A DNA stretch of 62,361 nt, counting the filler, from Candidatus Tectimicrobiota bacterium (lineage in GTDB: Bacteria; JACPSX01), in the NCBI GenBank assembly GCA_016193065.1. It is 7 parts of 7 records of this genome, joined end to end, with 100 filler letters (N's around TTAATTAATTAA, not from the genome) between each part and the next. Parts side by side here need not be neighbours in the genome. Positions count along the whole stretch, not along the records: positions 28,737 to 39,153 come from JACPSX010000206.1; 6 more parts are not named here. One strand, 5' to 3'. This document shows positions 2,882 to 56,414 of the stretch, one piece after another (within the stretch, counting starts at the first letter, position 1; every line of letters starts with the position of its first letter). The notes beneath the pieces are model-generated. The model was not told where the DNA came from. It did no database searches and worked only from the letters and a program-made list of their open reading frames with translations. The translations under genes and the position numbers were made by a program.

Positions 2882-2953
2882 CCCAAGTGTCAGTGCGAGT
2901 GTCTGTAGTCATCTGTCCGTGACAAGACGGCGTCTTGCAAGAGTTTTCAAGCC

Positions 2954-3031
2954 GTCATCCCGGCGAAGGCCGGGATCCAGTGTCTTCACCGACTCTCAAA
3001 ACAGCTGGACCCCGGTTTCCACCGGGGTGAC
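2954..3031. repeat. Paired inverted REP-like palindromes
   Basis: GTCATCCCGGCGAAGGCCGGGATCCAG ... CTGGACCCCGGTTTCCACCGGGGTGAC in an intergenic gap. A relative lies at about 59097-59123. Confidence 0.75.
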
Positions 3032-3092
3032 GACTTCTGACCAGGCGATGAAAGATGCGACGCATTTGCGTCATATCTCACGACGGAACAAT

Positions 3093-4343: not shown

Positions 4344-4364
4344 ATCCTGCTCTGACTTCCGCCG

Positions 4365-5522: not shown

Positions 5523-5544
5523 CGGGCACCTCGCGCTCGCCTTC

Positions 5545-6735
5545 CTACCGATTCATCGCGACCATATCGGCGAGGCAACCCGCCAGCACTTGCGTCTGCT
5601 TGGCGATGTCGAAGAGCTTCTCGACCCGCGCGCGTCCCTTCCGTCCCATCTCCACCGCCATAGCACGATCGTCGACCAGCGCCAATATCGCCTCAGCCAT
5701 CTTCGGAACGTCGTACTTCTCCACGACAAACCCAGTCTCGCCATCCTGAATCAGCTCAGGAAGACCGCCGGCTCGCGTTACCACGACGGGCTTCGCCGCC
5801 GCCATGGCCTCGGCCACGACGAGACCGAAGGACTCCTCGCATCGAGACGGAGCGACGAGGATGTCGATCGACCTGAACAGGTCGGGGCTGTTCCGCTCGG
5901 GACCGCATATCACGACCACCTTGTCAAGCCCGTACTCACGGACGCGCCGGTCGATCTCCTCGCGAAAGCTCTCCTCGGCCCGGCCGATCAGAAGCATCCT
6001 CACGTCGCTTCGCTGGGCGCAAACAATTCGCGCGGCCTCGACAAAGTCATGAATCCCCTTGGGCTCATCAACCCGGCCGACGAACGCCACCAGAGGCGTC
6101 GACTCTGCCCATCCGTAACGCTTCCTGAATATGTCCTTAGCAGACGTGTTCAGCTCGAATGCCGCGGCCTCGACTCCGTTGTAGATTTTCTCGATCTTGG
6201 CGCTGGCGATACCCAGCGCTTGCAGGCGAGACCGAACCGCGTCGGAGACGACGACATACCTCGTCACCGCGCGATCCAGCAGGCGAAATAGAACCCGGTA
6301 GAAGCAAGTGTCGGGATAATACTCGTGGACGTGGCAGACGACGGGGATCCGCGACCATAATAAGATCGGGAACATCTGGATCAGCAGATGGTAGCCGGAG
6401 ACGTAGAACAGGTCGAACCGGTGCTGCCGCCGCAGGCGCTGCAGGTCCCAGAACAGCCACGGGAGGCGAAGCAAGCACTCCGCCGTCATCCTGATGTTTG
6501 ACCAAGTCGGCTGCTTCGACAGAAAACCCAGATACGACAGGTCGAACCGAATCCCCAGACTGTTCAAGCGCTCGATGAAGTTGCCGTCGTTCCAATGAGT
6601 CACCAGGAATCGCACGCTGAACCTCTCAGGGTTCAGGTGCTTGAAGAATCGCAGCGTGGCGTGCGCGAGGCCGAATACCTGGCCCGTAGGAATCACGACC
6701 AGAATCTTCACCGGTCTTGCCACCGGGTCAGTCAT
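5545..6735 (-). CDS. Glycosyltransferase family 4
   Basis: FVGRVDEPKG, EESFGLVVAEAMAA. Start 6735 overlaps the reconstructed asnB stop (ATGA). Confidence 0.88.
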   Translation of the reverse strand: MTDPVARPVKILVVIPTGQVFGLAHATLRFFKHLNPERFSVRFLVTHWNDGNFIERLNSLGIRFDLSYLGFLSKQPTWSNIRMTAECLLRLPWLFWDLQRLRRQHRFDLFYVSGYHLLIQMFPILLWSRIPVVCHVHEYYPDTCFYRVLFRLLDRAVTRYVVVSDAVRSRLQALGIASAKIEKIYNGVEAAAFELNTSAKDIFRKRYGWAESTPLVAFVGRVDEPKGIHDFVEAARIVCAQRSDVRMLLIGRAEESFREEIDRRVREYGLDKVVVICGPERNSPDLFRSIDILVAPSRCEESFGLVVAEAMAAAKPVVVTRAGGLPELIQDGETGFVVEKYDVPKMAEAILALVDDRAMAVEMGRKGRARVEKLFDIAKQTQVLAGCLADMVAMNR

Positions 6736-8739: not shown

Positions 8740-8779
8740 NNNNNNNNNNNNNNNNNNNNNNNNNNNNNNNNNNNNNCCG

Positions 8780-9951: not shown

Positions 9952-10051
9952 NNNNNNNNNNNNNNNNNNNNNNNNNNNNNNNNNNNNNNNNNNNNTTAAT
10001 TAATTAANNNNNNNNNNNNNNNNNNNNNNNNNNNNNNNNNNNNNNNNNNNN
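9952..10051. other. Artificial scaffold spacer
   Basis: N44-TTAATTAATTAA-N44 (stops in all six frames). Confidence 0.98.
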
Positions 10052-16005: not shown

Positions 16006-17229
16006 TCACGCCGGGGACTCGAATCCCCGCAGCGCAACACCCGCGAAGCGCGGGTACCCACCCATGGAGCGCTCCAGCAGCGAAACCCAGAACCGATCTC
16101 CCATGCCGCCCGGCAGTGTCAAAGTCTTGAGAGCCAGGCGCTCGGGCAGCCCCACGGACGGGTCCCGGGAATCATACCTTCTCATCGCCCGCTCCACAAT
16201 CCCCAGGTTGAAAAGAAACTTCCGTTGAGAAACCAGGCCCTGCGCGGCGAAGCCGAGCTTTTTGGCAGTAAGGAGCAGACTGTGGAAATCCACATGGGTC
16301 GTCATATCCTGTTCCCCGAGCCAAATGTAGGGGTTATGATGAGCTGTCTGCCGGAAGTGGCAGGACAGCGTATCGGCCAGCAGCGGAGATCCCCAGATGC
16401 CGTAATCCAGAATGAGGATGTAGCCTTGCTGCAGCCGATCGGAAAGTTCCTGGAGCCAGCGGGCCGCCGCCAGGTTAATCTCCAGGGCGGTTCCCGTTGC
16501 CATCGGCCCCTGCACGGGCGCAAGCCGACAGTATTCCCAAAGGTCGGGAGAAGAGAGCGGCCCTACGACTTCCGTAAAGGAGCCCTCCCGGTAATCGACA
16601 TAAATCTCTCCCCAGTCCTGACCGTTGTAGACGACCCGGTGGACAGGCAATGCATCCAGGAACTCCTGGGCCAGAACACACCCTCCGAAAGGCTCCGAGT
16701 TCCGCATCCACTCTGCGGGCGCAAACCAGCACAGGCGGTTCCGAAATTCCGGCATGAACCGGTCCACTTCCTCCCGGAAGGAAGATGGGGGCCGGCCAAC
16801 TTCCACAATCCCGTAGTGGGTACGATCGTAAACCGGCGGGAATTCTCCTTTGAGGCACTTNNNNNNNNNNNNNNNNNNNNNNNNNNNNAGGCACTTCAGG
16901 ATATCCAGGCAGAGAGCCCCCTTCCCAGCGCCAAATTCCATGATTTGAAAACGGTCCGTTCCGATCCTCTCGGCCATCTCGGCAATCTGAACGGCCAGAC
17001 ATTGCCCAAAGAGCGGATGCACGGACACACTCGTGATGAAATCGCCATCGCGGCCAACCGTGGGGTGCTCCCTCGTATAGTAACCCCAGGAAGGATTGTA
17101 GAGGACAGTTTCCATAAACTCAGAAAAGGGGATCGGTCCCTTTTCCCGGATGCGTGCGGCCAGCCACTGCTCGGGTGCGGACAGGGCCTGATCCCTCACC
17201 ATCGAAGCACTCCTCAAGAAAGGGGACAT
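16006..17229 (-). CDS. MidA/NDUFAF7-family SAM-dependent methyltransferase (internal N gap)
   Basis: GPIPFSEFM..LY..GYY, GDFITS, EFGAGKG, EFLDALP, DYG, QDMTTHVDF. Confidence 0.88.
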   Translation of the reverse strand: MSPFLRSASMVRDQALSAPEQWLAARIREKGPIPFSEFMETVLYNPSWGYYTREHPTVGRDGDFITSVSVHPLFGQCLAVQIAEMAERIGTDRFQIMEFGAGKGALCLDILKCXXXXXXXXXXKCLKGEFPPVYDRTHYGIVEVGRPPSSFREEVDRFMPEFRNRLCWFAPAEWMRNSEPFGGCVLAQEFLDALPVHRVVYNGQDWGEIYVDYREGSFTEVVGPLSSPDLWEYCRLAPVQGPMATGTALEINLAAARWLQELSDRLQQGYILILDYGIWGSPLLADTLSCHFRQTAHHNPYIWLGEQDMTTHVDFHSLLLTAKKLGFAAQGLVSQRKFLFNLGIVERAMRRYDSRDPSVGLPERLALKTLTLPGGMGDRFWVSLLERSMGGYPRFAGVALRGFESPA

Positions 17230-18266: not shown

Positions 18267-18366
18267 NNNNNNNNNNNNNNNNNNNNNNNNNNNNNNNNNN
18301 NNNNNNNNNNTTAATTAATTAANNNNNNNNNNNNNNNNNNNNNNNNNNNNNNNNNNNNNNNNNNNN
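18267..18366. other. Artificial scaffold spacer
   Basis: N-TTAATTAATTAA-N. Confidence 0.98.
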
Positions 18367-26400: not shown

Positions 26401-27716
26401 TGCCTGCCCGGGTTCGGTTTTGCGGTCCTGCCGGCCACCGCCGCCGCGATCTGCTGAGCCAGGACATCCAGGGGTTTCTCAGGAATGAAGATCCGGTCCA
26501 AGTCGCCGCGCCGCGCCGCCCGAATCGCCGCGGCGCATTGCACCAGCTCGTCACGGGTTAAAGGATAAAGGACCCCTTTGGGCGTGGCGCCCAGCCAGTG
26601 CCCGGAACGACCGATTCTCTGCAGGAGAGTGGCCAGGGCGCGCGGAGCGCCGATGTGGCAGACCAGATCCACATGGCCGATGTCGATGCCGAGCTCCAGC
26701 GACGCCGTAGCCACCACCACGGGGACCTCCGCCGCTTTCAACTTGTGCTCCGCTTCCAGACGGGTCCTGCGGGAGAGGCTGCCGTGATGCGCCAGGACCC
26801 GGCCTTCGCCCAGCCGGGTGGCCAGTTGATGGGAGACGCGCTCCACCAACCGGCGGGTATTGACAAAAACCAGCGTTGTCCGGTGCGCTTGCACGCGGGC
26901 GGCAATGCGGTCGTAAATCTCCGCCCAAAGTTCGTGGGTCGTGATGGGGCCGAGCTCTTGGTCGGGGACTTCGATGGTTAGGTCCAGGTCGCGGCTGTGG
27001 CCTTCGTCCACAACGGCGCAGTCCGGCGAGCCGTCGGATCTCAAGTGGTTCGTCCCGACCAGAAGACGGGCAATCTCCGCGATAGGTTTTTGGGTGGCGC
27101 TCAAGCCGATGCGCTGCAGGCGGCGCCCGACGAGAGCATCCAGCCGTTCCAGAGAAAGCGCCAGATGAGATCCCCTCTTGTCACCGGCTACCGCATGAAT
27201 CTCGTCCACGATGACGGTCTGTGCCGTCTTTAAGAACTCCCGGCTGCCGGCGGCAGTCAAGAGAATGTAGAGCGACTCGGGAGTGGTAATGAGAAGGTGC
27301 GGGGGGCGTCGTGCCATCCGGCGGCGCTCCCCCATGGGCGTGTCCCCGGAACGCACGGCCACCCGGATCTCCGGAACGGTTAACCCTTCCGCTTGAGCCA
27401 ACTGCAGGATTCCGTGCAGGGGTTCCCTCAGGTTTTTTTCGATGTCGTTGCCGAGAGCTTTCAGCGGGGAGACATAAACAACTCTGGTTTTGTCCTCCAG
27501 ACGGCCTGCGGCAGCCTCGCGAACGAGGCGATCGATGAACCACAGAAAGGCGGCGAGGGTTTTCCCGGACCCGGTCGGCGCGGCGATGAGCGTATCGCTC
27601 CCCGCGGCGATGTGCTTCCAGCCCGATTCTTGGGGGGCGGTCGGATTGGAGAACCGCGCGGAGAACCATCGCCAGACCAGGGGGTGGAAGGAACTGTCCG
27701 CTGGACTTGCCTTCAT
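23405..27716 (-). CDS. lhr: Lhr-family SF2 helicase, frameshifted near 24750
   Basis: APTGSGKT, DEIH, HHGSLS, QRIGRSGH. The C-terminal winged-helix/AlkZ-like part (GGRFVNGFIGEQFA) is in a second frame. Confidence 0.88.
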
Positions 27717-27802
27717 ATATGCTTCTGTTTACAAGCAGTTACAGGTTTGGATCAACTTCCTCTTGCCTGCTTTTCCTTTTGCGGGTATTTCTTTACCTCG
27801 TT

Positions 27803-28390
27803 ATGCCGTTGCTCTTTACCCCACAAATGGAGAAGCGGGTCACCCCGCGCCTGCGCCACATGCTGGAGGTGGCCTTGCGCCGTTTCCCGGAATTGCAGGG
27901 AAAAGCCATCACCGTAGGGTACACCCGGGCCAATCTCGGCACCGCCATTATCCCGCTCGGACCCGGATCGGATGTGAAAATGGGCATTCGTCTGAACCCT
28001 CGCAATTTGACTTATAATACCATTGGTCACGAACTGACGCATCTGGTCCAGGGTCTATCCCAGCATTCAAGAAAGGCTCACCGCAAAAGCAAGCGGGCAA
28101 CGATGGGGAAAATCCCCGGTGGGGAAACGCAGTGCGATATCTGGACTTTGGCGCGCAGCGATCTGTTCTGTGATGATGCACCCCTGTATCTGCGCTTACC
28201 TCGTCATGTAAGAAAGAACTGGCCGCACTATGCCGGATCGGTTCGCACCCTTTGCATCGCCGCCATCGAGAAACGCCAGACGTACCGGCTCTACATCCGC
28301 TGGCTGGAATCTCAGATCAAACAGCTCCCCCGACGGTCGCTTTTCACGAGCGCAGACGACAGGCAACTGCGCCTCCCCTTTGACGACTGA
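27803..28390 (+). CDS. HExxH zincin-like hypothetical protein
   Basis: IGHELTH followed by GETQCD; ends in QLRLPF. Confidence 0.65.
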   Translation: MPLLFTPQMEKRVTPRLRHMLEVALRRFPELQGKAITVGYTRANLGTAIIPLGPGSDVKMGIRLNPRNLTYNTIGHELTHLVQGLSQHSRKAHRKSKRATMGKIPGGETQCDIWTLARSDLFCDDAPLYLRLPRHVRKNWPHYAGSVRTLCIAAIEKRQTYRLYIRWLESQIKQLPRRSLFTSADDRQLRLPFDD

Positions 28391-28636: not shown

Positions 28637-28736
28637 NNNNNNNNNNNNNNNNNNNNNNNNNNNNNNNNNNNNNNNNNNNNTTAATTAATTAANNNNNNNN
28701 NNNNNNNNNNNNNNNNNNNNNNNNNNNNNNNNNNNN
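28637..28736. other. Artificial scaffold spacer
   Basis: N-TTAATTAATTAA-N. Confidence 0.98.
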
Positions 28737-28737
28737 T

Positions 28738-29295
28738 AACCCCTTCGAGGTTCGGAGCGGGCAGATCGGCAAAGAGCTCGATCAGACGCTTGTAAACGTC
28801 AAGCGAGATGGAATTAGGATTCACGGGCGGCAGATGGGTTCCCAACGGGCTGGCTCGATCCGCTGTGCAAGTCTCAACCCCACGGTATTCCTTGAATTCC
28901 CCAAGTCTGCCACGCTAGCCGACAATGAGCGGATTCCTGTCCGTTACGAGTTGACCATCAACCTTGATTTGAGTCCAGAGGCTCGCTACGTCACCCTCGT
29001 CCACGAACTCGCTCACCTTTACTGCGGGCATCTCGGCACACCCAATAAGAATGGGTGGCCAGACCGGCGCGGGCTGCCACACGGAGCAAGAGAGTTTGAG
29101 GCTGAGTCAGTCGCGTATCTTGTTTGCTCCCGGCTCGGTATCGACAACCCCTCCGCCGAGTACCTCGGCGGCTATGCCAACACACGTGAACAGGTGCCGC
29201 CCATCAGCCTTGAGTGCGTGATTAAATCCGCCAGCCTCATTGAGAATATGGGCCGGCAACTGCTGAAACCTAGGAAAGCAAGGATTTCCCCGTGA
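28738..29295 (+). CDS. ImmA/IrrE- or ArdC-like metallopeptidase (5'-partial)
   Basis: TLVHELAH...EFEAESVAY; frame is open to the scaffold edge. Confidence 0.75.
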   Translation, partial: NPFEVRSGQIGKELDQTLVNVKRDGIRIHGRQMGSQRAGSIRCASLNPTVFLEFPKSATLADNERIPVRYELTINLDLSPEARYVTLVHELAHLYCGHLGTPNKNGWPDRRGLPHGAREFEAESVAYLVCSRLGIDNPSAEYLGGYANTREQVPPISLECVIKSASLIENMGRQLLKPRKARISP

Positions 29296-29354
29296 CCACC
29301 CTCAAAGAGGGATCTGCCGCCTTTTTCGCCATCAATCTAATCCTAAAAACGCGC

Positions 29355-29384
29355 TTGACAGGTAACGGAGGCCAGTTTATGAAT
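29355..29384 (+). promoter_or_regulatory. Candidate sigma70 promoter for the HATPase-STAS-PIN operon
   Basis: TTGACA-17 nt-TATGAA(T). Confidence 0.45.
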
Positions 29385-29442
29385 GGCACATGGAATTCAA
29401 TTACTTCAATATGTTAGAAACGCCGTTAGAGCGAGTTAGTGA

Positions 29443-30321
29443 ATGCCTATCAGAGTAGGTATTCCTCAGGTGAACAAATGGGACGTGGAGGGGGGAGTAC
29501 GGGGGATCCTGAAAGCAACCGACAGATACGCAAACTCCCAAGATCCGCTTGTCTTGGACCTCGCCAGGTGTTCGTTCCTCTCAGCGGAAGCCACGGCCCT
29601 ATTGGCCTCGATATTCCTCGTAAGACGGAAAATGGAAGCTTCGACCCAAATTGACTCAACTACCGTACAGTGGCCCGTGTGGCGTCACTTGCAGCGGATG
29701 TGGTTCTTCTCCTTAAGTGGTATCGAGGAGAAGGGTATTGCTCCAGGGTCATCGCTCCCTTTGTTCCACACGGAGGCTCTAGAAAAAGACCGAATCCTCC
29801 GATATATTGATGAGGAGATACTGGGACGCCCGGCAATGCCTTCAATGACACCATCCCTGCGGAAGGAGATCCGGCGCGCATTTTTCGAAGTAATCGGAAA
29901 CGTATTTCACCATAGTGGCTCACTAATCGGAGCAGTTGTCTGCGGGCAGATCTATCCGAATGATAATGAGATTCAGATCACTTTCCTCGATAGGGGAGTT
30001 GGTGTGGCTTGCAAGGTTCGATCATGGCTTGATAGCATCGAGGACGACAAAAAGGCCATTGACTGGGCACTCAAGCGGGGAACCTCAACCTTGGCCACGG
30101 GAACCCAATCGCGCGGGTTGGGATTGTACCTGCTTCGGGAATTCATAAAAGCAAATGAAGGCCAGTTTAGAGTTTATGCAAACGGAGCCTTCCTTGAGGA
30201 GGCCTCCGGGCGAAGAACTTATAGGACGCTTAATCCCCCCCTGGGAGGAACTCTTGTGGACCTTCGGATCAATATTCGCCCGGATGTGGAGTATGGATTC
30301 CAACAGGATTTCGAGAATTAA
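29443..30321 (+). CDS. STAS-like + HATPase (RsbW/SpoIIAB-like GHKL) protein
   Basis: LDLARCSFLS N-terminal domain; N-box EVIGNVFHH, G1 DRGVG, GTST, G2 RGLGLY, GT; no HisKA domain. Confidence 0.8.
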   Translation: MPIRVGIPQVNKWDVEGGVRGILKATDRYANSQDPLVLDLARCSFLSAEATALLASIFLVRRKMEASTQIDSTTVQWPVWRHLQRMWFFSLSGIEEKGIAPGSSLPLFHTEALEKDRILRYIDEEILGRPAMPSMTPSLRKEIRRAFFEVIGNVFHHSGSLIGAVVCGQIYPNDNEIQITFLDRGVGVACKVRSWLDSIEDDKKAIDWALKRGTSTLATGTQSRGLGLYLLREFIKANEGQFRVYANGAFLEEASGRRTYRTLNPPLGGTLVDLRINIRPDVEYGFQQDFEN

Positions 30322-30354
30322 GGCAGAGCCTTTTGCCAATGAGAAAATGACACC

Positions 30355-30705
30355 ATGCGCACCCTAAAGGTCAGCATCATTTGTGGTAAGCATTGTCTTG
30401 CTCCTGATGAGGGCGAGGCTCTCTTCAAAGAGATCTATGGAACCTTGCAGAAAGGAGAAGATGTCCTTTTGGACTTCAACGGAGTGGACACCTTGGCCAG
30501 TTCCTTCCTGAATACGGCCGTGGGCAGACTATTTGGTAAATTCGACTACGGGTTCCTTGACGCCAGGCTGCAGTGGGTAGGTCTGGACCAGCAGGACGAG
30601 AGAGTGTTAAGGCTAGTCATCGAAAACGCCAAGGAGCATGTCCAAAAGAGTGAAGCCGAACGCGAGATCACGGCGAAGATTGTGCGCAGAGCCATTGGGG
30701 AGTAG
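30355..30705 (+). CDS. STAS-like (DUF4325-type) protein
   Basis: VLLDFNGVDTLASSFLNTAVGRL. Confidence 0.85.
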   Translation: MRTLKVSIICGKHCLAPDEGEALFKEIYGTLQKGEDVLLDFNGVDTLASSFLNTAVGRLFGKFDYGFLDARLQWVGLDQQDERVLRLVIENAKEHVQKSEAEREITAKIVRRAIGE

Positions 30706-30707
30706 CC

Positions 30708-31390
30708 ATGGCATCTGCGCTGACGAGCGCTGAGGAACTAAGACCTTGGGTCCGAGCGGAAGTGGTAGATCTGAGAAGCACCGGTGCCCCGACGGAAGAG
30801 AAGTATCTCGTCGATACAAACGTTCTGTACTTCATCCACTACGAACGCTTTGGCGACTTGGATGAGCTAGGAAAAGGAGCGAGGCCGTATCAATTAGAGC
30901 ACTACCCCAAATACTTCAAACGAGTTCGAGACCACGAAGGGAAACTTTTCGTCCACCGCCTCGGCTTGATAGAGTTTGCCCGGCTAGTTGAGAGGGCGGA
31001 GCTAAATTTCTCTACGCAATCAAGACGCCTGGTGTCACAGAGATTCCCCCGGAAATTAACATGAAAGATCTGCGGAGGGCTTACCCGCAAGATTACGGAA
31101 AGTGCCAGGCAAGAATCCTCACTTATATGGGCTCTGTGAGAAAAGTCCACTCTTTGCTCCAAATGCCACCTTGCGATGAATCGGCCTTCTGGGCGCAATG
31201 GGATATGGGGTGGCAGGGCACAGTTGCAAACCCGGAGGATGCTGCTCAACTGGTGGATGCACGGGATTCCGGTATATCAGCAGTGATATCGGATGACTCC
31301 GATTGGGTCAGCATTGAGGGAATCAGGCTCTTCACCGCGAATCGGCTTGCTATTCAGGCTGCTCGGCTAGCCGGAAAGCTTGCGCGGTAG
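30708..31390 (+). CDS. PIN-domain nuclease, split by a -1 frameshift at about 31004-31010
   Basis: LVDTNV...E in frame 0; EDA...SDDSDW..TAN in the -1 frame. The joined product is about 227 aa. Confidence 0.75.
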
Positions 31391-31442
31391 CCTCCGCTTT
31401 ACTAGTCGGTTGACGTCATGTTGAGGGGCGCGATTCAGCGGA

Positions 31443-31751
31443 TTAATCCGATTGCCTCAGGCGTCGCGCCACCTCTTTATAAATCTCCGCCCTCTCCCGT
31501 TTTCCAATACCTATGATAAGGATCACAAGTCTTTGTCGCTGGATCTCGTAGACGATCCGATATGCTTTTTTCCCGAAGTAGATTTTACGGTACCCTGTGA
31601 GATCGATCCCCATTCTTTTCCCCAGGGGTTCCCCCAGTTCGGGGCTTTCCAAAAGTTTGTCAATCTGCTTGGCAGCGATCTTTTTCAGTGAACCATCCAG
31701 CGCTTCGAACTCTCGGGCAGCTTCCGGCAGAAATTCAATCTTATAGGCCAT
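31443..31751 (-). CDS. RelE/ParE-family toxin
   Basis: YKIEF..EA..E, LGEPL, YRIVYEI, GKRE. Confidence 0.88.
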   Translation of the reverse strand: MAYKIEFLPEAAREFEALDGSLKKIAAKQIDKLLESPELGEPLGKRMGIDLTGYRKIYFGKKAYRIVYEIQRQRLVILIIGIGKRERAEIYKEVARRLRQSD

Positions 31752-32013
31752 ACTTGGCTTTCAGAGATTCCCAAGAGATTCTTTTTCCTCGATCCTGCGC
31801 TTTTCTATCCTGGATCTCAAGTGCGGTCAGGAGATGCTCCAAATCTTCGACCATGCCTTCGTATTCATCAATCGGGAGGATCACGGCCTCAAGCCGGTTG
31901 TTGCGAGATAGCACCATGCGCCCCTTCTTTTTGACCGCCTTTAGTACTTCTCCTAATTGTTTCGATGCGGTTGACGAGGAGACGATCTCGTCTCTACGGT
32001 AAGATGTCTCCAT
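31741..32013 (-). CDS. Phd/YefM-family antitoxin
   Basis: VLSRNNRLEAVIL..DEYE; overlaps the toxin start; GGAGG SD. Confidence 0.85.
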   Translation of the reverse strand: METSYRRDEIVSSSTASKQLGEVLKAVKKKGRMVLSRNNRLEAVILPIDEYEGMVEDLEHLLTALEIQDRKAQDRGKRISWESLKAKYGL

Positions 32014-32044
32014 AAGTTGAACCTCCTTTTTTAAAAACTGTTAC

Positions 32045-32078
32045 GATAAATTATCCTCTGGAGTTTACGGAAAATCAA
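32045..32078 (-). promoter_or_regulatory. TA promoter with overlapping operator-like palindrome
   Basis: TTGATT-17 nt-GATAAT; palindrome GATAA-A-TTATC lies over the -10. Confidence 0.55.
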
Positions 32079-32128
32079 GGGGAAGGATTTGGGTCAGAGT
32101 CAGGGAGGATTAATCGGGGCGTGAAGTT

Positions 32129-33050
32129 CTAGCCTGGAAACTGCAGGGTGTCCACCAGGGAGTTCACGTCAGCCACATCGTTTTCCCGGCAGTAGGCGCG
32201 GAGGCCGTCTAGGATCTTTACGGAGGACTGCGGGTCCACGAAGTTGGCCGTGCCCACCTGGATTGCGGTAGCTCCCACGATGAGAAATTCCAGGGCGTCC
32301 TCGGCGGTCATGATCCCGCCGATGCCGATGAGCGGGAGCTTCACGGCCTGGCGCACCTGCCACAGGGCCCGCAAAGCAATGGGGCGAACGGCGGGTCCGG
32401 AGAGTCCTCCCGTGGCCGTGGCGAGTCTCGGCTTGCGAGTACGGACGTCCACGGCCATGCCGAGGACCGTGTTCATGACGGAAAGGGCGTCGGCGCCGCC
32501 GTCGGCGGCGGCGCGGGCAATCACGCGGATGTCCGTCACGTTGGGCGAGAGCTTGATGAGCAGCGGCAGTGTTGTGGCCTTGCGCAGTGCCCTGGTGATC
32601 TCCAAGGTGGCTTTCGGGTCCAGGGCGAAATCGAGCCCCTTGCTCACGTTGGGGCAGGAGATGTTTGCCTCCACGGCGGCGACTCCGCCGCTCTCTTCCG
32701 CCCGCCGCGCCACCGCACAGTACTCTTCAATGGTTTCTCCAAAGATGTTGGCGATGACCGGCGTGCCGATTTCCCGCAGGCGCGGCAGCTTCTCGGAAAT
32801 GAAGGCTTCGATTCCGACGTTCTGCAAGCCGATGGAGTTAAGCATCCCGGCCGGGGTCTCGGCGATGCGCGGCGTCGGATTGCCGAGCCTGGGCTGCAAG
32901 GAAAGACCTTTGACCACGATGGCGCCGAGCTGCCCGAGGTCCAGATAGGGCTCAAACTCGAGGCCGTAGCCGAAGGTGCCCGAGGCCGTCATGACCGGGT
33001 TCTTGAGACGGAGCGGCCCGAGCTGTACGGCCAGGCGGGGTTCTTCTACC
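32129..33050 (-). CDS. pyrD: Dihydroorotate dehydrogenase 1B catalytic subunit (start codon apparently lost)
   Basis: [27 protein letters not shown]. Confidence 0.92.
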
Positions 33051-33857
33051 CACCACGCAGCCCAGGCAGGCTCCAAACCCGCAGCCCATGAGACACTCCA
33101 GGGAGGCGTATCCCGGCGCTTTCCACTGCCGGCACAGACGGGCGACGGCGGCCATCATGGCATGAGGGCCGCAGGTGTAAATCAGTCGAGGCAGTTTCTC
33201 CTTACCGGATGATTCACCGTCCAGCAAAAGATCCGTGACCACCCCTTTTTCTCCAAGAGAACCGTCCTCCGTGGCGATGCGAACCGGAATCTCCATGACC
33301 TGAAAATCCTCCGCCCCCACGATGTCCGCAGCCCGGCGCCCTCCAAAGAAGAGGGTTGTCTTGCACTTCCGGAAAAGGTTCGGCTCTCGCTGCTGGAATT
33401 CTTCCATGAGGACGAGAAGCGGTGCAATCCCGATCCCACCGGCAATCAGGAAGATCTCTGAGGGTTCGGTGGGGAGAGGAAACGGCTTCCCCAGCGGACC
33501 CAGGATGTCCACCGGCCGGCCGACCTCCATGTGGGCCATGATCCGGGTCCCCTGACCGACGACCCGGTAGATGAATTCCACGGAGTCCGGAGAGCGGGTT
33601 CTTGTTCCCCTGGCGATGCCGGGAGCCGCCGACGGGTTGGTCCCAGGCGGATTTCCCGCCGGCTGCTTCTTTCTCGCCGGTCCCGCTCCCAGGGAATAAA
33701 AGCTGAAAGGCCGGCGCAGCAGAGGATCTAGTGATTCTGAAACTCGCAGCATCACGAATTGGCCTGCCCGGGAGTTTCGGGCGAGCTCGGGAGCGAAAAT
33801 CCCCATCAGGAAATTGTCTCCCGCCAGAGACAGGTTGTAGAGAACCGACCCGTTCAC
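32952..33857 (-). CDS. pyrK: Dihydroorotate dehydrogenase electron-transfer subunit (true C-terminus missing)
   Basis: [31 protein letters not shown]; the final C..GPVF motif is absent. Confidence 0.85.
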
Positions 33858-36800
33858 CGTGCTGCGTTTCCCTGTTCGTAGAACTCCTGCAAGGGGGTCA
33901 CATCCATGTCCTCTTCCAGGAGAGCGTTGATCCCCTGGATGGCGGCAAAGGCACCGGGAATCGTGGTGTAGTAGGGGAGATTCTGCAGCAGGGTCGTGCG
34001 CCGGATCTGGAAGGCGTCGTGAAGCTGAATTTTTCCGGTGGGGGTGTTGATGACGAGCTGGATCTCCCCGTTCTTGATGTGATCCACGACGTGGGGCCTG
34101 CCTTCGGACACCTTGAGAACGGGCTTGACGGGCACGCCGCTCTCCCGGATCACGGCGGCGGTCCCCGAGGTGGCAACGATGGAAAATCCCAGCGCGGAAA
34201 GCTCCCGGGCCAGGCGGACGGCTGCCGGCTTGTCCTTGTCCTTGACGCTGATGAAGACGGTGCCTTCCCGGGGCAGCCCCCCGTTGCAGGACATCTGAGA
34301 CTTGGCGAACGCTTGCCCGAAGGAGCGCCCGATTCCCATCACTTCCCCGGTGGACTTCATCTCGGGCCCCAGCAGGGGATCTGTGCCGGGGAACTTTGTG
34401 AACGGGAGAATGGCCTCCTTGACCGCCACGTGGGGGAGGATTCGCTCGGACGTGTATCCCAGGTCCTGGAGGGTTAATCCCGTCATGATCTTTGCCGCCA
34501 GCTTGGCCAGGGGAACCCCGATGGCTTTGCTGACGAAGGGGACGGTGCGGGAAGCTCGGGGGTTTACTTCCAGAATGTAGACCTCTCCTTCGCGCACCGC
34601 AAACTGGATGTTGATGAGGCCGCGCACCCGCAGTTCCAGGGCAAGGATGCGGGTTTGCTCCCGGATGCGGCCCAAGATCGGGGCCGGGAGGGAGTAGGGG
34701 GGAAGGGAGCAGGCACTGTCCCCGGAGTGAACTCCCGCTTCCTCGATGTGTTCCATGATTCCGGCCACCACCACGGTGCGCCCGTCGCAGAGCGCATCCA
34801 CATCCACCTCGATGGAATCCTCCAGGTATTTGTCGATGAGGACGGGGTGCTCGGGAGACGCCTCGACGGCCCGGCTCATGTATTCCCTCAGGCTCTCCTC
34901 GTCATAGACGATCTCCATGGCCCTTCCGCCCAGGACGTACGAGGGGCGCACCATGACAGGGTAGCCGATCCGAGAGGCCACCTGCAGGGCTTCATCCACC
35001 GCGGTGGCCGTGCCGCTCTCTGCCTGTTTCAGTCTTAGCTTCTCCAAGAGCGCGCTGAAGCGTTTGCGGTCCTCGGCCAGGTCGATGTCGTCGGGAGAGG
35101 TTCCCAATATGGGCACTCCGGCCCGTTCCAGGGGAATGGCGAGCTTGAGGGGAGTCTGACCTCCGAACTGGACGATGACCCCGGTGGGCTTCTCCACCTC
35201 CACGATGTTGAGCACGTCCTCCAGGGTCAGGGGTTCGAAATAGAGGCGGTCGGAAGTGTCGTAATCGGTGCTCACCGTCTCCGGATTGCAGTTCACCATG
35301 ATCGTCTCGCAGCCGATCTCCTTGAGGGCCATGGCGGCGTGCACGCAGCAGTAGTCGAACTCGATCCCCTGGCCGATGCGGTTGGGTCCCCCCCCCAGGA
35401 TCATCACCTTCTTGCGATCCGTGGGGTTTGCCTCGCACTCCCGCTCGTAGGTGGAGTACAGGTAGGGGGTGTGGGCCTCGAACTCGGCGGCGCAGGTGTC
35501 CACGGTCTTGTACGTGGGGCGAATTCCCATCTCGAGCCGGCGGTGGCGCACTTCCCGTTCTGTAGTCCCCAGGAGCGTTCCCAGGCGCCGGTCCGAGAAC
35601 CCCAGCTCTTTGGCTCTCCTCAGAATGGGTTCCGAAAGCCGGCTGAGAGGGGGAGGTATCGTGCCGCGTGTGGAGGCGGATTCCCGGCAGAGAGCTTCTT
35701 CCGTTTCGATGATCTCGCGGATGTTGTGGAGGAACCAGGGATCGATTCGGGATAGCGCGTAGACCTCGTCCACGGAAAAACCCTGGCGAAATGCCTCTCC
35801 GATGTACCAGACCCGGTCGAAGGTGGGCAGCCGCAATTTCTCCCGGATCAGATCCCGGCGCCCTTCGGGGGACAGGCCCGCGGGAAGAAAGGATTCGAAG
35901 CCGTAGCGGTCCACTTCCAGGGAGCGCATGGCCTTGTGCAGGGATTCCTTGAAGGTGCGGCCGATGGCCATGACTTCCCCCACGGATTTCATCTGGGTCG
36001 TGAGGACCTCGTCGGTGCCGGGGAACTTCTCGAATGCAAAGCGGGGAAACTTGACCACGCAGTAATCGATCGTGGGCTCGAACGAGGCGGGGGTCTCCTT
36101 GGTGATGTCGTTGGGGATCTCGTCCAGCGTATAGCCCACGGCCAGCAGGGCTGCAATCTTGGCGATGGGGAACCCCGTGGCTTTGGAAGCCAGGGCCGAG
36201 CTGCGAGATACCCGGGGGTTCATCTCGATGACCACCATGTCCCCGTTTTCGGGGTTGATGGCGAACTGGATGTTGGATCCTCCCGTCTCCACGCCGATTT
36301 CCCGGATGATGGCGATAGCCGCATCTCTCATGAGCTGATACTCTTTGTCCGTCAGGGTCTGGGCGGGGGCCACGGTGATGCTGTCCCCCGTGTGGATCCC
36401 CATGGGATCAAAGTTCTCGATGGAACAGATGATGACCACGTTGTCTTTCCGGTCCCGCATGACCTCCAGCTCGAACTCCTTCCAGCCGGCGACGGAGCGC
36501 TCGATGAGGACCTCCCCGATAGGGCTTGTACTGAGCCCCCACTCCACCCGATCTTCAAACTCCTCGATGTTGTAGGCGGCACTTCCGCCCGTCCCTCCCA
36601 GCGTAAAGGAGGGGCGGATAATGAGGGGGAAGCCCAGGTGCTCTGCGACCCTGAATCCTTCTTCCAGGCTGCGGACGTAGCCGCTCGGTGGAAGAGAGAG
36701 GCCGATGCGCTCCATGGCTTCTTTGAACAGGTTGCGGTCTTCGGCTTTCTTGATAGCGGGGAGCTTGGCCCCGATGAGTTCCACGCCGTAGCGATCGAGT

Positions 36801-37120
36801 ACTCCGGCTTCGGCCAGGAAAACCGCCAGGTTCAGGCCCGTCTGGCCTCCCAGGGTGGGGAGGAGCGCGTCCGGGCGCTCGCGGGCGATGACCCGGGCCA
36901 CCATCTCCGGGGTCAGGGGCTCCACGTAGGTGCGGTGGGCCATCTCCGGATCGGTCATGATGGTGGCCGGGTTCGAGTTCACCAGCACGACGGTGAACCC
37001 CTGCTCGCGCAGGACCTTGCAGGCCTGGGTCCCCGAGTAGTCGAACTCGCAGGCCTGCCCGATGACGATGGGCCCCGAGCCGATGATCAGGATTTTCTGT
37101 ATGTCGGTTCTCTTGGGCAT
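33854..37120 (-). CDS. carB: Carbamoyl-phosphate synthase large chain
   Basis: [26 protein letters not shown], duplicated ATP-grasp domains, MGS domain. Confidence 0.98.
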
Positions 37121-37167
37121 CTTTGCTTCAACTCTTTTCGAATCAATTGCACCAGCCCGGCAACTTC

Positions 37168-37488
37168 TCAGGCGGCATAGAGCACCTTTCCGCGAGTGAG
37201 GATCTCCTGAAAGAACTGGTCCCCTCTGCTGAGACGCCGATGGAGCTCGTCAGGGGTTATCACGATGGGCTCCACCGGAGTGCGCCGCTCAGGATCTGCG
37301 ATCAGTTCCCGAACCGCCACCCAACGGTCGATGAACCGCTCGGGAGTCTCCTTCACGATCAGCAGATCAATATCGCTGTCCTCTGTTGCTTCTCCGTAAG
37401 CATACGAGCCGAAGAGGATTACCTTGAGGGGCTGATACCCCTCAATGATCCGCCTCACGATACTTTCGATCTCCTGGTCGCTGGTCAT
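37168..37488 (-). CDS. Minimal nucleotidyltransferase (MNT antitoxin type)
   Basis: ILFGSYAYG...DSDIDL; start at MTSDQ. Confidence 0.85.
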
Positions 37489-37533
37489 TTCGCCTTTCCT
37501 TTTGCACGCCTGATTCCACGCAACCCTTTCGCT

Positions 37534-37583
37534 TCCACCCCCTCCCTTCCCCTCCCCCGTCGAGGGGGAGGGATGGGTGGGGG
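37534..37583. repeat. REP-like palindrome
   Basis: CCACCCCCTCCCTTCCCCTCCCCC-GTCGA-GGGGGAGGGATGGGTGGGG; resembles the remnant at 1-20. Confidence 0.6.
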
Positions 37584-38219
37584 CTATTTCTTCTCGAAGC
37601 AGTAGATATCCCTTATCTTCACATGCCGGTAGCGTTCCCACTTGAGATGCATGACCATGAGCTGGTGAATCAGGGCCAGAGGGGAGGCCTCCCCTTCTTT
37701 TTTGAGACGCTTGATCTCCTGTTCCACGAGCCCTTTTACTTCACGAGGGTGGAAAAACAGAGCCGGAGAGAGAAAATACGCGCCGTTCAGGGGGAGGATC
37801 CTCCCCTGTACCAGGGAGCTGGGCTGAAAGGCCGAAATGAGATCATTCTCCGTCAGGGAGACCGGGAAACTTTTCTTGGTGAAGAGGTCCTGCAGGTCCA
37901 CCTGATTCTCCCGCAGCTTGCGGGCGAGAAAAACGCTGTGGACGTTGCCGACGAACTGCTGGCAGACCGCTCTTTCCTCTTCCGGAAGGGAGTTGGAATC
38001 GAGCAAGAGTTCCAGAGGGGTGAGACGGCTGTTGTCTAGAGGACGTTCGAAGAGAAACCAGTCGAGAAAGGAGGCCATGCGGACATCAAAGGAAGGATCT
38101 TCCTCGATCACCTCCCCGGTGCGAGCCAGAAACTCCCGCCGTGCTTCCGGCATCTCCGCCGCGATGTCCGGTACGGACAGCCGCTCCCAGAGCTTCTCCA
38201 GGTACTCTCTGACCATCAT
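37584..38219 (-). CDS. Conserved-looking hypothetical protein, coupled to carA
   Basis: 211-aa [12 protein letters not shown] motif, ATGA overlap with carA. Confidence 0.7.
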
Positions 38220-39153
38220 GCCCCTTTCATGAGATCGATGAACCGGGAAAATAAGTAGCCGGCATCATGGGGACCGGGCGAAGCCTCGGGGTGATACTGG
38301 ACGGAGAAGACCGGCAGCTCCTTGTGCCGCATCCCTTCCAGAGTATGGTCGTTCAAGTTCACGTGGGTCAGCTCGACCTCCGGTGGGAGAGATCCCGGAT
38401 CGACGGCGAAGCCGTGATTTTGCGTCGTGATCTCCACCCGGCCGGAACGCCGGTCCAGGACGGGGTGGTTTCCGCCGCGGTGACCGAACTTCAGCTTGTA
38501 GGTCTTCCCTCCAAAGGCCTGGCCCAGGATCTGGTGCCCCAGGCAAATCCCAAAGATCGGCTTTTTCCCCAGAAGTTGCCGCACCGTATCCACCGCATAG
38601 GGGACCGCGGCCGGATCGCCGGGACCGTTGGAGAGAAAGACGCCGTCCGGGTTTTGGCCCAAAACCTCTTCGGCGGGATAATCGGCCGGAACCACTTTCA
38701 CCCGGCATCCGGCATCGACTAACATCCGGAGAATATTCTGTTTGATACCGAAATCATAAGCGATGACGTTGAATTTCTTTTTTTGTACGGGCGCACGGCC
38801 CCTAGGAGGGACCACTTCGTGGCCCTGCGCCCCTACCATGCGCACAATCCTGTGACTCCCCCTGTTCCACCCATACGGCTTCTTGCATGAAACCACTTTT
38901 GCCAAATCCTGTCCCTCCATGGAAGGAAGGGCGGCCGCCTTTTTCTTCAGTTTCGAAAAATCCGTGACCACACCGACATGAATAAGCGCCGGTTTTGCCC
39001 CGGCATCGCGGATGTGCCTCACCAATGCGCGCGTGTCAATTCCCTCGACAGCCGGGACTTTATTCTTCTTCAAAAAAGCGGAGAGAGATGACTTCGCCCG
39101 AAAGTTGCTCACAATGGGGGAATTTTCTTTCACGACGAATCCCGAAAGATAAA
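38216..39153 (-). CDS. carA: Carbamoyl-phosphate synthase small chain (5'-partial)
   Basis: [31 protein letters not shown]. Confidence 0.95.
38785..38836 (-). repeat. GTAG-type REP with nested insert, in frame inside carA
   Basis: GTAGGGGCGCAGGGCC-[20 nt]-GGCCGTGCGCCCGTAC. Confidence 0.7.
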
Positions 39154-39253
39154 NNNNNNNNNNNNNNNNNNNNNNNNNNNNNNNNNNNNNNNNNNNNTTA
39201 ATTAATTAANNNNNNNNNNNNNNNNNNNNNNNNNNNNNNNNNNNNNNNNNNNN
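39154..39253. other. Artificial scaffold spacer
   Basis: N-TTAATTAATTAA-N. Confidence 0.98.
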
Positions 39254-44251: not shown

Positions 44252-44351
44252 NNNNNNNNNNNNNNNNNNNNNNNNNNNNNNNNNNNNNNNNNNNNTTAAT
44301 TAATTAANNNNNNNNNNNNNNNNNNNNNNNNNNNNNNNNNNNNNNNNNNNN
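44252..44351. other. Artificial scaffold spacer
   Basis: N-TTAATTAATTAA-N. Confidence 0.98.
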
Positions 44352-49648: not shown

Positions 49649-52600
49649 CTAGCGGAAACGGAAAGAAAATTTCAGATCCACTCCGGCCTCCCCCCTCTCA
49701 TCCCGAATTCCAACCAGAGAAAGAGAGCGGGTGAGGCGATATTCCACCTCAAGCACCTGTCCTTCGGAGACCCCCACGATGCTGCTGTAAGTCACAGACA
49801 GGTCTTTGGAGAGATCTTTGCCTACCGTCACCCGGGGACCTGATCCCTGCCCCCCAACCACGTAAGGATCGACCTGGAAGCGATCCAGGCCCGTGATCTG
49901 ACGCACCCCTTTTTCCAGCTCCCTTTCCAGCTCTCCGGCCAGATAGGTGGAGGCCCCTTGAGCGGCAATCTCCCCCTGTCCGGGCGAGACCTCTCGACCC
50001 GTCTTGCCCAGGGTGATGAGGGAAACGATGTCAATCTCGTTCAGGGGGGGATTGGAGCTCAGGCCTACGTTGAATTGTTCCGGAGTGCCGTTTGCCCTTA
50101 ACGAGACCTGGTACCGCCTCACGGTCGCCTCCGCCAGCAGATCGAAATAGGGGACAAACCGGTTGGGGTCGAAGAAATCCAGGGTCCCTGAAGACACGAC
50201 GAACTCGGTGCCGCGGAAAACGATCTTTCCCTTCTTCACCTCGGCCCGGCCCGTGAGGCTCGGCCGCTGCAAGTTGCCGCCCAGCATGAGGTCGGCCCCC
50301 ATCTCCAGACGGGCTAGATTCGTGTCAATGAGGATCCCGTCCCGGCTGGTGATTTCCAAGTTAAGACCGAGATCCGCCACCCGCTCTCCGAAAGGTTCCA
50401 GACGACGCTTGCGCAACTGGGAGAGAAGAGACTTCAGGTCGATCTGCCTGTGGTAGATGGCCTTTTCAACGATGATTTGACCACTGAGGACTCGACCTCC
50501 GGGGCGCCCCTCCATGAGAAGCTGAGCGTTCACACGGGAGTTGAGTTCGGCTGGAAGGCGCAAGGCCAGATGCTCACCGTCCAGAACCAGGCGGAAGTTC
50601 CCCTTTTCCTTGCCGGCAAACAGGTATTCCCCCGAGCCGCTGAACCGACCGCCCCCTTCCATCCGGCCCCGGAATTCGAACACCCGCAACCGGTTGCCCG
50701 AAAACTCTCCGTCGGCCACCAGGTCGGATACCGACAGTCCCCCCAGTGTAGAAGCCGTGAACGCTCCTTCGCGCAGCGTTACAGCCCCCTCCATCTGCGG
50801 GCTGGCCAGGGGGCCGACAATTCTCATCTGGCCCTGCAGGGTACCGCGGGAAATCCGGAGCTGGGCACCCGCCAGGCGGGTACCCGGGCTTCTCAGGAGA
50901 CCCAGGCTGCCGGCCCCCCGCACGAGCAGGTCCGCTCTTTCCCCAAGGGTCACGGAGCCAGAGAGGTTCAGGTCTGTCCCTCCTCCGCGCAAATGAAAGC
51001 GGTTGACCGTCAACTTTCCTCCCTGATAGGCAAGCTCAATCGTCTCGGCGTTTGTCAATTCCACCCCGAACAGGCTGGCAGTCAGTTGCCTGACCCGGAT
51101 GCCCCCGGAAACTTGAGCTTTGGGGCGAAGGTTTCCCGCCAGATCCGCCTGCGCGCTAAACGTACCGCTCAGGGTCCCTGCCTTGCCTCCCGTGGCCTGC
51201 TGCACAAATGCCGCCAGGTCGCTGCGCGCCGCAGAGATTGTAGCCTGGAAGGGAAAGTCGCCCGCCAGTTTCCCGTTGCCCCGGACTTGGTAGCCGCCAA
51301 AACCTTCTCCCGACCACTCGATACTTTGGCCTTGTCCCCGTAAGGTGATCCGGCCTTCCCCTAGATTCTGACGCCACAGGCTCAACTTGGTAAGGTGGAT
51401 CTCTCCCGCCAGGGTGATTCCATCTCTGTTCCCGCTGCCGCTCATTTGCAGTTGGGCCACCCCCCCGGGCTCCGAACCTTGGGAGGCAAGAACTTGCAGC
51501 TTGGAGAGATCCAGAGCTGAGGCCGTGAGTTCCCCTCCCCATGCCCCTTTCTCCCAGCGGTAGTAGCCTTTCCCCCGCAGGGTTCCGGCGCCAAGCAGCA
51601 CGGCCAAGTTGTCCACCTTCAGTTCCCGTGCAGTTGTCAACCCGAGAGCTCCCTGCAGGGAAGAAAATGGTTCCCCCCGCCAGGTGCCAGCCTCGATTCT
51701 CACGATACCCTCACCCGACGGCGTAATCTCTTTCAGAGTCCCATCCACTTCGGCGGAACCCTCCAGGGAAAGGCGGGAAAAGTTCAGCACGGCGTTTCTG
51801 AAACTGCCGCCGAACAGACTGACCTTTCCTCGTGTGCTCCCCTTGCGGAAGCGGTCCCGGACAGAGACCGCCAGGTCCGCAACAAGGCGATCATAACCAA
51901 GCCCCCGGATCTCTCCGCGCTCCGCCCTCAGTAACACCCGGCCGGTTGCCCCAACTCCCGGACGCAGGGAATCCAGGGAGACGCTGGCTCGAAGAGCCGG
52001 AATCTTGCCCCCTCGAAACTCCCCCTGCAGCCATTCAACTTCAGCACTGCCCTTGAGATCCTGCGGCGACCCTGTCAAGGAGAGGGAGCCGTTCAGGTTC
52101 CCCGTGACCGGCCAGGATTTTCCAAGCACCTGCTGGAGGCGGCGGATCCCAATTCCTGCATAGGAGATCCCCAGTTCTTCAACCCCACGCAGAAAAGGAG
52201 CGGGCTTCTTCCCAAAGAGGTTCCCCGAAACCAAAAATCTCGCCCTCCCCCTGAGGTTCCCCTCGGGGTGGGAGAGGTGAAACTCACCCACGCGGAGATT
52301 TCCTCCGTCCCACTGTCCCGAGAACTTCAAGGAGGTGAAAGGAACCCCCTCGATTTCCCCTGAACCAAGAACCCCGCTNNNNNNNNNNNNNNNNNNNNNN
52401 NNNNNNNNNNNNNNNNNNNNNNGGCCGCCAAGATCGGATGACCCCAGCTCCCCGAGAGACGACCCTGGCCGCTTATCTCCCGGGCCTCTCCCTCCCATTC
52501 TAAATAGGCGGCCCAAGCGGAACGATAGGACCCCTGCAAGGGAAATTGCAGATCCACCCCCCCGTCCAAGGTAAGATCCCCACGGGGTTCCAGGGCGAGG

Positions 52601-56314: not shown

Positions 56315-56414
56315 NNNNNNNNNNNNNNNNNNNNNNNNNNNNNNNNNNNNNNNNNNNNTTAATTAATTAANNNNNNNNNNNNNNNNNNNNNNNNNNNNNN
56401 NNNNNNNNNNNNNN
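56315..56414. other. Artificial scaffold spacer
   Basis: N-TTAATTAATTAA-N. Confidence 0.98.

Follow-up and report, generated by a model that had tools for sequence, protein, structure and literature searches.

A divergent VapKSC operon with a split toxin gene in a Candidatus Tectimicrobiota genome

Three small genes in the genome of an uncultivated groundwater bacterium raise the question whether a kinase, a STAS-like protein and a PIN-domain nuclease form a toxin system that is gated by phosphorylation, whether such a system is already known, and whether this copy of it can still produce its toxin. The genes are located at positions 29443-31390 of the window, i.e., the whole stretch of 62,361 nucleotides (nt) that was analyzed (Candidatus Tectimicrobiota bacterium, assembly GCA_016193065.1, filler letters included). 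An earlier note, made from the sequence alone, had proposed a phosphorylation-gated toxin or abortive-infection system with the PIN protein as its output, and knew of no characterised system with this layout, although one was not excluded. The latter claim has to be given up. The layout has been described under the name vapKSC (Chambers, Rani, Min, Villa, Corbett, EMBO J 2026; PMC13373217; PDB 9Z7O), and a match to an already described system is what the note itself had named as grounds for abandoning its proposal. The kinase-STAS-PIN mechanism is no longer new, and the locus is a divergent, broken VapKSC member. The explanation that we favor, with a probability of roughly 0.75, is that it is a vapKSC operon, a toxin-antitoxin and anti-phage system with a kinase as its gate, and that it is present here as a decaying copy with an intact kinase and an intact antitoxin and a toxin that is most likely not made.

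The features of the operon, including its open reading frames (ORFs, lengths in amino acids, aa), are as follows.

29355..29383, plus strand: possible promoter, TTGACA, 17 nt, TATGAA, about 60 nt 5' of vapK, read by eye
29443..30321, plus strand: vapK (ORF1), kinase of 292 aa with a STAS-like region at about residues 1-110 (weakly supported) and a GHKL domain at about residues 140-290, with neither a helix-turn-helix (HTH) nor a HisKA domain
30355..30705, plus strand: vapS (ORF2), STAS-like DUF4325 antitoxin of 116 aa with a C-terminal tail at about residues 94-116; Ser49 is the predicted phosphorylation site
30708..31064, plus strand: N-terminal part of vapC, ORF of 118 aa with the first catalytic aspartate, D36, in LVDTNV; its stop lies 60 nt past the break
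30992..31390, plus strand: C-terminal part of vapC, frame open from 30992, with an ORF of 109 aa at 31061-31390 that starts with the ATG at 31061; SDDSDW cluster and TAN motif
31002..31010, plus strand: frameshift junction, CTA AAT TTC in the upstream frame and AAA TTT CTC in the -1 frame, from three-frame translation and alignment to intact relatives

Membership of the locus in the VapKSC family

According to the available text of the description of vapKSC (PMC13373217), the system is defined by VapK, a CapK-like protein with STAS and GHKL domains, VapS, a STAS protein whose C-terminal region is short, and VapC, a PIN protein. It comprises 289 instances, 103 of which have a PADLOC defence gene within 10 kb, and our re-count of Dataset EV3 reproduces both numbers. 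The crystal structure of VapS with VapC is a 2:2 complex. The VapC of Escherichia is toxic, and its toxicity is abolished by D28A. VapS neutralises VapC, and neutralisation is lost upon deletion of residues 94-116 or with S48E, which also loses binding. The operon confers about 2-log protection against phage Bas42, which is lost with VapC D28A, VapS S48A or VapK F54A. The phosphorylation of VapS by VapK and the activation of VapK by single-stranded DNA were inferred in that paper from CapK-CapS experiments and AlphaFold 3 models, because VapK was insoluble.

The three reading units of the window share the plus strand, with a gap of 33 nt between ORF1 and ORF2 and of 2 nt between ORF2 and the third gene. 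The tight spacing and common orientation postulated earlier were thus recovered, but the third gene consists of two ORFs in different frames. The promoter-like element in front of the group was only partly borne out. Under the rule of the promoter scan no sigma-70-like site was found 5' of ORF1, but by eye a perfect TTGACA at 29355-29360, followed after 17 nt by TATGAA, is seen as a weak candidate; the scan does not report TATGAA because its rule requires the second hexamer to end with a T. The sole inverted repeat in the region 29290-29450 is a 9-nt palindrome around GAATTC.

The ORF1 product, VapK, matches phrog_3364 strongly and over its full length (expectation value, E, 7.6e-32), and 24 relatives with 38-70% identity were found in metagenomes. 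The GHKL residues E149 and N153 of the N-box, D183, G185 and G187 of G1, and G225 and G227 of G2 are unchanged in all 74 VapK relatives compared. F45, retained in 73 of the 74 sequences, is a candidate counterpart of Escherichia F54, the conserved aromatic residue at the predicted ssDNA site of VapK. Pfam finds neither a HisKA nor an HTH domain in ORF1, in agreement with the initial view of a GHKL ATPase that lacks HisKA. In a BLASTP comparison, VapK is 30% identical over 261 residues to the vapK product of Pseudomonas sp. GM84 (E 3e-33). DUF4325 is carried by 16% of the members of one Atlas cluster that resembles VapK. A pattern scan with the VapK alignment A1 yielded no relatives among 60 matches in genome contigs and none among 8 in viral contigs. 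The own genome (2.9 Mb, 294 contigs, 86% complete) does not contain a second vapK or vapC, and one same-genus genome that was searched (91% complete) gave no VapK match.

Genes resembling vapK were also seen outside of such operons. Distant VapK-like genes with 24-30% identity are present in 15 phage records. In Streptococcus phage Javan172 (L099, record 1-5561), a gene for an 'ATPase-like protein' (307 aa) and a gene for a 114-aa protein are located between regulator and integrase genes, and a PIN gene is absent from this record. In the available text on Francisella phage KIRK (PMC7924643), a 293-aa gene and a 112-aa DUF4325 gene adjoin the gene of the CI repressor. In addition, positions 41-251 of the PADLOC model PDLC02567 (DrmA, 1750 positions) match VapK (E 5e-12) and positions 336-398 match VapS (E 0.0013), which suggests that some DISARM DrmA proteins bear an N-terminal kinase and STAS module.

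For VapS the relationship is direct. DUF4325 (E 2.6e-13) is the sole Pfam family found in the ORF2 product, and residues 8-96 match chain A of PDB 9Z7O, 'Escherichia VapS' (E 8.2e-12). Both proteins have 116 aa, with the C-terminal region at residues 94-116, and the identity to the VapS of Pseudomonas sp. GM84 is 33% (BLASTP, E 4e-14). S49, within the ASSFL motif, is opposite the serine of FASPFF in 9z7o_A, which equals S48 only if the crystal chain bears an 18-residue tag, as was assumed. The S49 column is near-invariant, with at least 90% serine among 20 VapS sequences and a threonine in L008. Both the stand-alone STAS-like protein and the location of its predicted phospho-serine had therefore been recognized correctly. 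As a separate observation, three of the public sequencing runs treated below (X2, X3 and X4) carry a G>T exchange at window position 30640, which changes Val96 of VapS to Phe within the C-terminal inhibitory region.

The third gene is linked to the family via its intact relatives. A profile search with these relatives retrieved 567 representative clusters at E ≤ 0.001, of which 313 reach E ≤ 1e-10. Among 100 aligned VapC family members, 53 match Pfam PIN (PF01850) at E ≤ 0.01, and the profile built from the 100 members matches 9z7o_C, 'Escherichia VapC', over its whole length with E 2.6e-56; this is the one solved structure so matched. The family invariants D196, D197, D199, T210 and N212 (P0032 numbering; alignment A7) are held in the C-terminal part of the window vapC. 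The assignment of a PIN-domain protein is therefore upheld by the family profile, but the gene is frameshifted and neither half matches Pfam PIN.

Because VapK is without a solved structure, its homology was tested via synteny. Ten metagenome loci encode relatives of ORF1. All eight that reach past the kinase gene have an ORF2-like gene of 119-130 aa behind it, and the order vapK-vapS-vapC is present in 7/7 close loci that reach past vapS, the third gene being cut by the contig end in two loci (L006 and L010). A scan of species-representative genomes with the VapC alignment A5 gave 217 relatives, from which 80 loci were kept, and the ORFs of these loci were searched with hidden Markov models (HMMs), for which the window VapK family, nine VapS sequences and the VapC family served as input. 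In 74 of the 80 loci, the DNA upstream of vapC extends over at least 1350 nt. Among these informative loci, 59 have the order vapK-vapS-vapC, 14 have vapS-vapC only, and one fits neither arrangement. The scores of the VapK HMM in the 59 loci are mostly between E 1e-39 and 1e-53, with weaker values for 10 copies that are short or split. In 79 of the 80 loci vapC has a vapS gene ahead of it, and the last one is without upstream DNA. Conservation of the triad, which had been suggested as a check, is thus far beyond chance. Five of the loci (L013, L019, L051, L053 and L069; VapK HMM E 8e-47 to 1e-48) stem from genomes that are listed in Dataset EV3 as containing vapKSC, namely Pseudomonas sp. GM84 (L069), Planctomycetes bacterium GWA2_39_15, Calothrix sp. 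NIES-4105, Nostoc sp. FACHB-280, and Candidatus Desantisbacteria CG2_30_40_21 (L013).

Observed here are the homology of all three genes, the retained gene order and the key residues. Because the homology and the order are shared with the EV3 operons, the locus is, as judged from its sequence, a member of the VapKSC family.

In the 14 loci with vapS-vapC only, most of them cyanobacterial (L012, L026, L031, L033, L036, L054, L060, L061, L063, L065, L066, L074, L085 and L087), unrelated genes take the place of a vapK directly upstream. In two of these loci, L031 and L033, the vapS-like ORF has a length of 263 aa. Among other resources, PADLOC 2.0.0, which had been recommended for checking the proposal, could not decide it, as it contains no model for a kinase-STAS-PIN system and gave only partial DrmA matches. 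NCBIfam yielded nothing useful, and a tblastn search of P0032 against plasmids gave no match.

Several results weigh against this assignment. The match of ORF1 to Pfam HATPase_c (E 9.4e-5, 23.3 bits) is under the gathering cut-off of 26.4 bits. Its N-terminus matches the SpoIIAA-like chain 4hyl weakly (E 0.015, residues 20-95), and a profile-profile comparison (hhalign) of the VapK and VapS families gave a probability of 24.5%. The clade of the window has diverged from the published set, VapK and VapS being about 30% identical (versus Pseudomonas sp. GM84), and its VapC proteins have 221-227 aa versus about 200-210 aa in the published set. The direct matches of the two vapC halves to 9z7o_C are weak, with E 0.0016 for the N-terminal half, in which D36 is opposite the catalytic D28, and E 0.0088 for the C-terminal half (9z7o_C residues 164-201), in which SDDSDW is opposite TDDGDY. 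The strong link to 9z7o_C therefore runs via the family profile.

Pairs of a kinase and a STAS protein are also known from partner switching. In SpoIIAB-SpoIIAA and RsbW-RsbV, a GHKL serine kinase phosphorylates a conserved serine in helix 2 of a STAS protein and thereby switches its partner. VapK resembles such anti-sigma-factor kinases, and one source labels a homologue 'anti-sigma regulatory factor (Ser/Thr protein kinase)'. A classical sigma-factor partner-switching module, with the PIN gene as an unrelated neighbour, is contradicted by synteny and by the solved VapS-VapC complex, and this interpretation is almost certainly wrong. A PIN gene follows vapS in each of the seven close loci, and vapS stands before vapC in all but one of the 80 genome loci. 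Moreover, as the earlier note had stated, the locus encodes neither a sigma factor nor a PP2C phosphatase: none was found among eight ORFs (27.7-32.0 kb) or among 16 ORFs, both operon genes and neighbours, in five related loci.

The split vapC gene

Can this member of the family still produce its toxin? With either half of vapC, searches of Pfam, PADLOC, NCBIfam and PHROG gave no meaningful match. The N-terminal ORF corresponds to residues 1-100 of P0032, an intact relative of 227 aa (59% identity), and the frame open from 30992 aligns with its residues 102-227 (67% identity). All five complete relatives of the close clade (L001, L002, L004, L005 and L008) have a single vapC ORF of 221-227 aa. 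An intact, single-ORF vapC is the VapKSC feature that the window copy lacks, and the locus is therefore a broken member and not a non-member. The change of the homology from one frame to the other at CTA AAT TTC is consistent with the loss of one base from the A run.

One explanation would be an error of sequencing or assembly in a gene that is in reality intact. The break lies within a short A/T run, and the metagenome assembly is fragmented, with 294 contigs and a completeness of 86%. However, contigs of four separately assembled public runs span the break without an indel relative to the window (word depths 3.5, 22.5, 9.75 and 3.5). One of them, X3, carries a variant allele that departs from the window in 5 places, and the frameshift is present in both alleles. 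Furthermore, a run of three A's is not a typical error site. A limit of this evidence, which counts in favor of an error, is that all four runs are from one study and that the assembly itself may stem from one of these runs. Taken together, an error is quite unlikely, and because of the four runs without an indel the frameshift is very probably real in the source population.

A different possibility is that the break is real and nonetheless tolerated by the ribosome. A_AAT_TTC at 31004-31010 is a canonical X_XXY_YYZ slippery heptamer for -1 frameshifting in the upstream frame, it is located exactly where the homology shifts frame, and the -1 frame at this site is exactly the one that continues VapC. 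Such heptamers are rare: with Y = A or T, they were found at 38 of 21361 in-frame positions in the long open frames of the window, and about 0.04 would be expected in the 23-codon rescue zone. In addition, the frameshift persists in two slightly different alleles, and 3/4 single-nucleotide polymorphisms (SNPs) downstream of the break in the X3 allele are synonymous in the downstream frame. These observations count against a simple loss of the toxin and would fit a working system, in which -1 slippage yields some full-length VapC and the frameshift is a translational throttle on the toxin dose. If this were true, rare slippage would limit the translation of a kinase-gated abortive-infection toxin, as a throttle or a further safeguard, and would account for the persistence of the break in two alleles with kinase and antitoxin intact. 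However, the RNA downstream of the heptamer contains no stable structure, as 100 of 200 shuffled sequences fold as well (z 0.02). Because a stimulatory structure was not found, we read vapC as a pseudogene. The heptamer also arises as a by-product if one A is lost from an AAAATTT run, P0032 and the five complete close-clade loci have one ORF, other vapC genes are broken in other ways, and selection cannot be tested with just four SNPs. Programmed slippage is therefore unlikely.

The two halves might also be made separately, with translation of the second starting from the ATG at 31061, and assemble into a split active PIN nuclease. This ATG overlaps the first stop codon as ATGA, reminiscent of translational coupling, and catalytic acidic residues are kept in both halves. 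However, about 20 conserved residues between the halves are lost or are replaced out of frame, and a conserved two-gene form was found in no relative examined. A split nuclease is very improbable.

Damaged copies were also seen elsewhere. The vapC of L013 (L013:3492-4109) contains two in-frame stops, vapK is short or split in 10 of the 59 genome loci with all three genes, and the representative proteins P0096 and P0076 resemble out-of-frame fragments. The genome of L013 (Candidatus Desantisbacteria CG2_30_40_21) is still listed as containing vapKSC in Dataset EV3. For the window, the split of vapC leads us to conclude that the toxin output of this copy is probably lost, and that the locus, a known kind of system, is probably a decayed copy.

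Genomic surroundings of the operon

The neighbourhood of the operon comprises the following features.

28637..28736, no strand: artificial contig join, N44-TTAATTAATTAA-N44
28737..39153: contig holding the operon, 10417 bases
28738..29295, plus strand: M78/IrrE-like metallopeptidase gene, 5' end cut, frame open from 28738 (Pfam Peptidase_M78, E 5.8e-6); a neighbour, outside of the system
31443..32013, minus strand: separate type II toxin-antitoxin pair; a neighbour, outside of the system
31443-31751, minus strand: ParE/RelE-family toxin gene (Pfam ParE_toxin, E 2.9e-10)
31741-32013, minus strand: Phd/YefM antitoxin gene (Pfam PhdYeFM_antitox, E 1.4e-13)

The window is a chain of separate contigs, and gene neighbourhoods across the joins are not to be read. 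The spacing N44, 12 nt, N44 occurs at six places (9952-10051, 18267-18366, 28637-28736, 39154-39253, 44252-44351 and 56315-56414). The linker at 28637-28736 is the only one whose letters were read, its 12 nt being located at 28681-28692. Single N runs are present at 8740-8776, 16861-16888 and 52379-52422. Because of the join at 28637-28736, a GC-rich helicase-like gene to the left belongs to another contig, and because the contig starts at 28737, the M78 peptidase gene is cut at its 5' end. The gene order on the contig is M78 peptidase, ORF1, ORF2, the two vapC-part ORFs, ParE, Phd, pyrD, a pyrK-like gene and carB. The IrrE-like peptidase and the Phd-RelE pair had been named correctly as flanking genes. 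The guanine plus cytosine (GC) content is 0.49-0.54 over 29.0-32.0 kb versus 0.59-0.65 to the right. The proposed drop in GC content relative to the flanks therefore stands for the right side, but the GC-rich genes to the left are on another contig.

The upstream neighbours of related close-clade operons vary by locus. The operon of L001 has genes for an HTH protein and a DNA methylase as well as an unknown gene upstream and the gene of a large serine recombinase downstream. In L008, a methylase gene and a gene for an MjaI-type restriction enzyme precede the operon, and in L006 a PorP/OmpA gene does. Because these neighbours differ among related loci, the M78 peptidase gene and the ParE-Phd pair are regarded as neighbours in a variable, defence-rich spot and not as parts of the system. 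The setting of the operon is mobile or defence-like, with its low GC content, the adjoining ParE-Phd pair, the restriction-modification genes in L001 and L008, and the recombinase in L001.

Three further observations concern the ends of this region and the adjacent contig. The contigs of runs X2 and X3 show 20 differences from the window within about 130 nt (28744-28870, the 5' part of the M78 gene), are near-identical to it from 28870 onward, and extend at least 255 nt further upstream; the assembly breaks near 28744-28870 at a strain-variable or recombinant spot. In the same-genus genome G001 (L098, G001:C221:1-277 versus window 32014-32130), the 3' end of pyrD adjoins unrelated low-GC DNA, and the spot beside pyrD may be a variable insertion site; the G001 contig ends beside pyrD, and the island insertion could therefore not be delimited. 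On the neighbouring contig, window 27707-28390 contains an ORF of 227 aa with an HELTH motif and weak SprT-like and RtcB matches (E 0.05-0.07), which may encode an uncharacterised zinc peptidase.

Proposed mechanism and comparison with known systems

From the homologues, the following course of events can be proposed. VapS would bind VapC and block its nuclease, as in the 2:2 complex of the homologue. By analogy, single-stranded DNA from DNA damage or phage infection would switch on VapK, which would then phosphorylate the conserved serine of VapS, here presumably Ser49. Phosphorylated VapS would free active VapC, and growth would stop. In the copy described here, vapC is one base short compared to intact relatives near 31002-31010; the toxin would thus no longer be made, and the locus would be decaying. 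The phosphorylation-gated PIN toxin that the earlier note had deduced is therefore shown or proposed for VapKSC homologues in the available text of PMC13373217, but its output has probably been lost in this copy.

Because the layout was published in 2026 together with a crystal structure, toxicity tests and a phage-protection test, there is little new in principle at this locus. What it adds is that VapKSC reaches into a divergent clade, which we encountered nowhere but in metagenome data and the present uncultivated groundwater genome and which is characterized by a longer VapC and a different VapK motif. It further exemplifies that natural copies decay at the toxin gene and keep kinase and antitoxin, as would be expected if the toxin is costly. 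The mechanism that had been deduced from sequence alone agrees with independent experiments on homologues. Beyond this locus, the question of interest is whether any full-length toxin can be synthesized by way of the slippery heptamer.

The closest known system is the VapKSC of Escherichia sp. E4736. The locus shares with it the three genes in equal order, a GHKL kinase without an HTH domain, and a mobile or defence-like setting, and perhaps a STAS-like region of VapK, which has weak sequence support in the window. Like its Escherichia counterpart, the window VapS is 116 aa long, combines a STAS domain with a C-terminal tail and has retained the conserved serine, and VapC is in both cases a PIN protein with conserved acidic residues. 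In contrast to the Escherichia system, the VapC proteins of the clade have 221-227 aa versus 203 aa, the vapC of the window is frameshifted, and the VapK motif is CxFLSAEA in the window clade versus CxFLRxNA.

The pair CapK-CapS, as far as it is treated in the available text of PMC13373217, has a homologous kinase and STAS protein and an equal proposed input, DNA damage. However, CapS bears a winged-helix DNA-binding domain at its C-terminus and acts as repressor of a downstream operon, and an HTH domain is found at the N-terminus of CapK, whereas the window VapS consists of a STAS domain plus a short tail, VapK is devoid of an HTH domain according to Pfam, and the predicted output is a toxin protein and not transcription. 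The difference to SpoIIAB-SpoIIAA and RsbW-RsbV is that the STAS protein itself would inhibit the output, and that the kinase has a putative N-terminal STAS-like domain of its own.

With type II VapBC systems, VapKSC has in common that a PIN toxin is bound and neutralised by a small protein that is encoded directly upstream. Unlike VapB, however, this antitoxin is STAS-like and does not have one of the DNA-binding folds (AbrB, ribbon-helix-helix, HTH or Phd). In addition, according to the available text of PMC13373217, VapS leaves the active-site Mg2+ in place. Release would occur by phosphorylation and not by proteolysis of the antitoxin. The earliest printed pairing of vapS with vapC that we found is the PIN.4 row in Table 1 of Matelska, Steczkiewicz, Ginalski, NAR 2017 (PMC5499597). 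In the available part of that paper the function of PIN.4 is given as unknown and a kinase is not mentioned; its members are putative counterparts of VapC.

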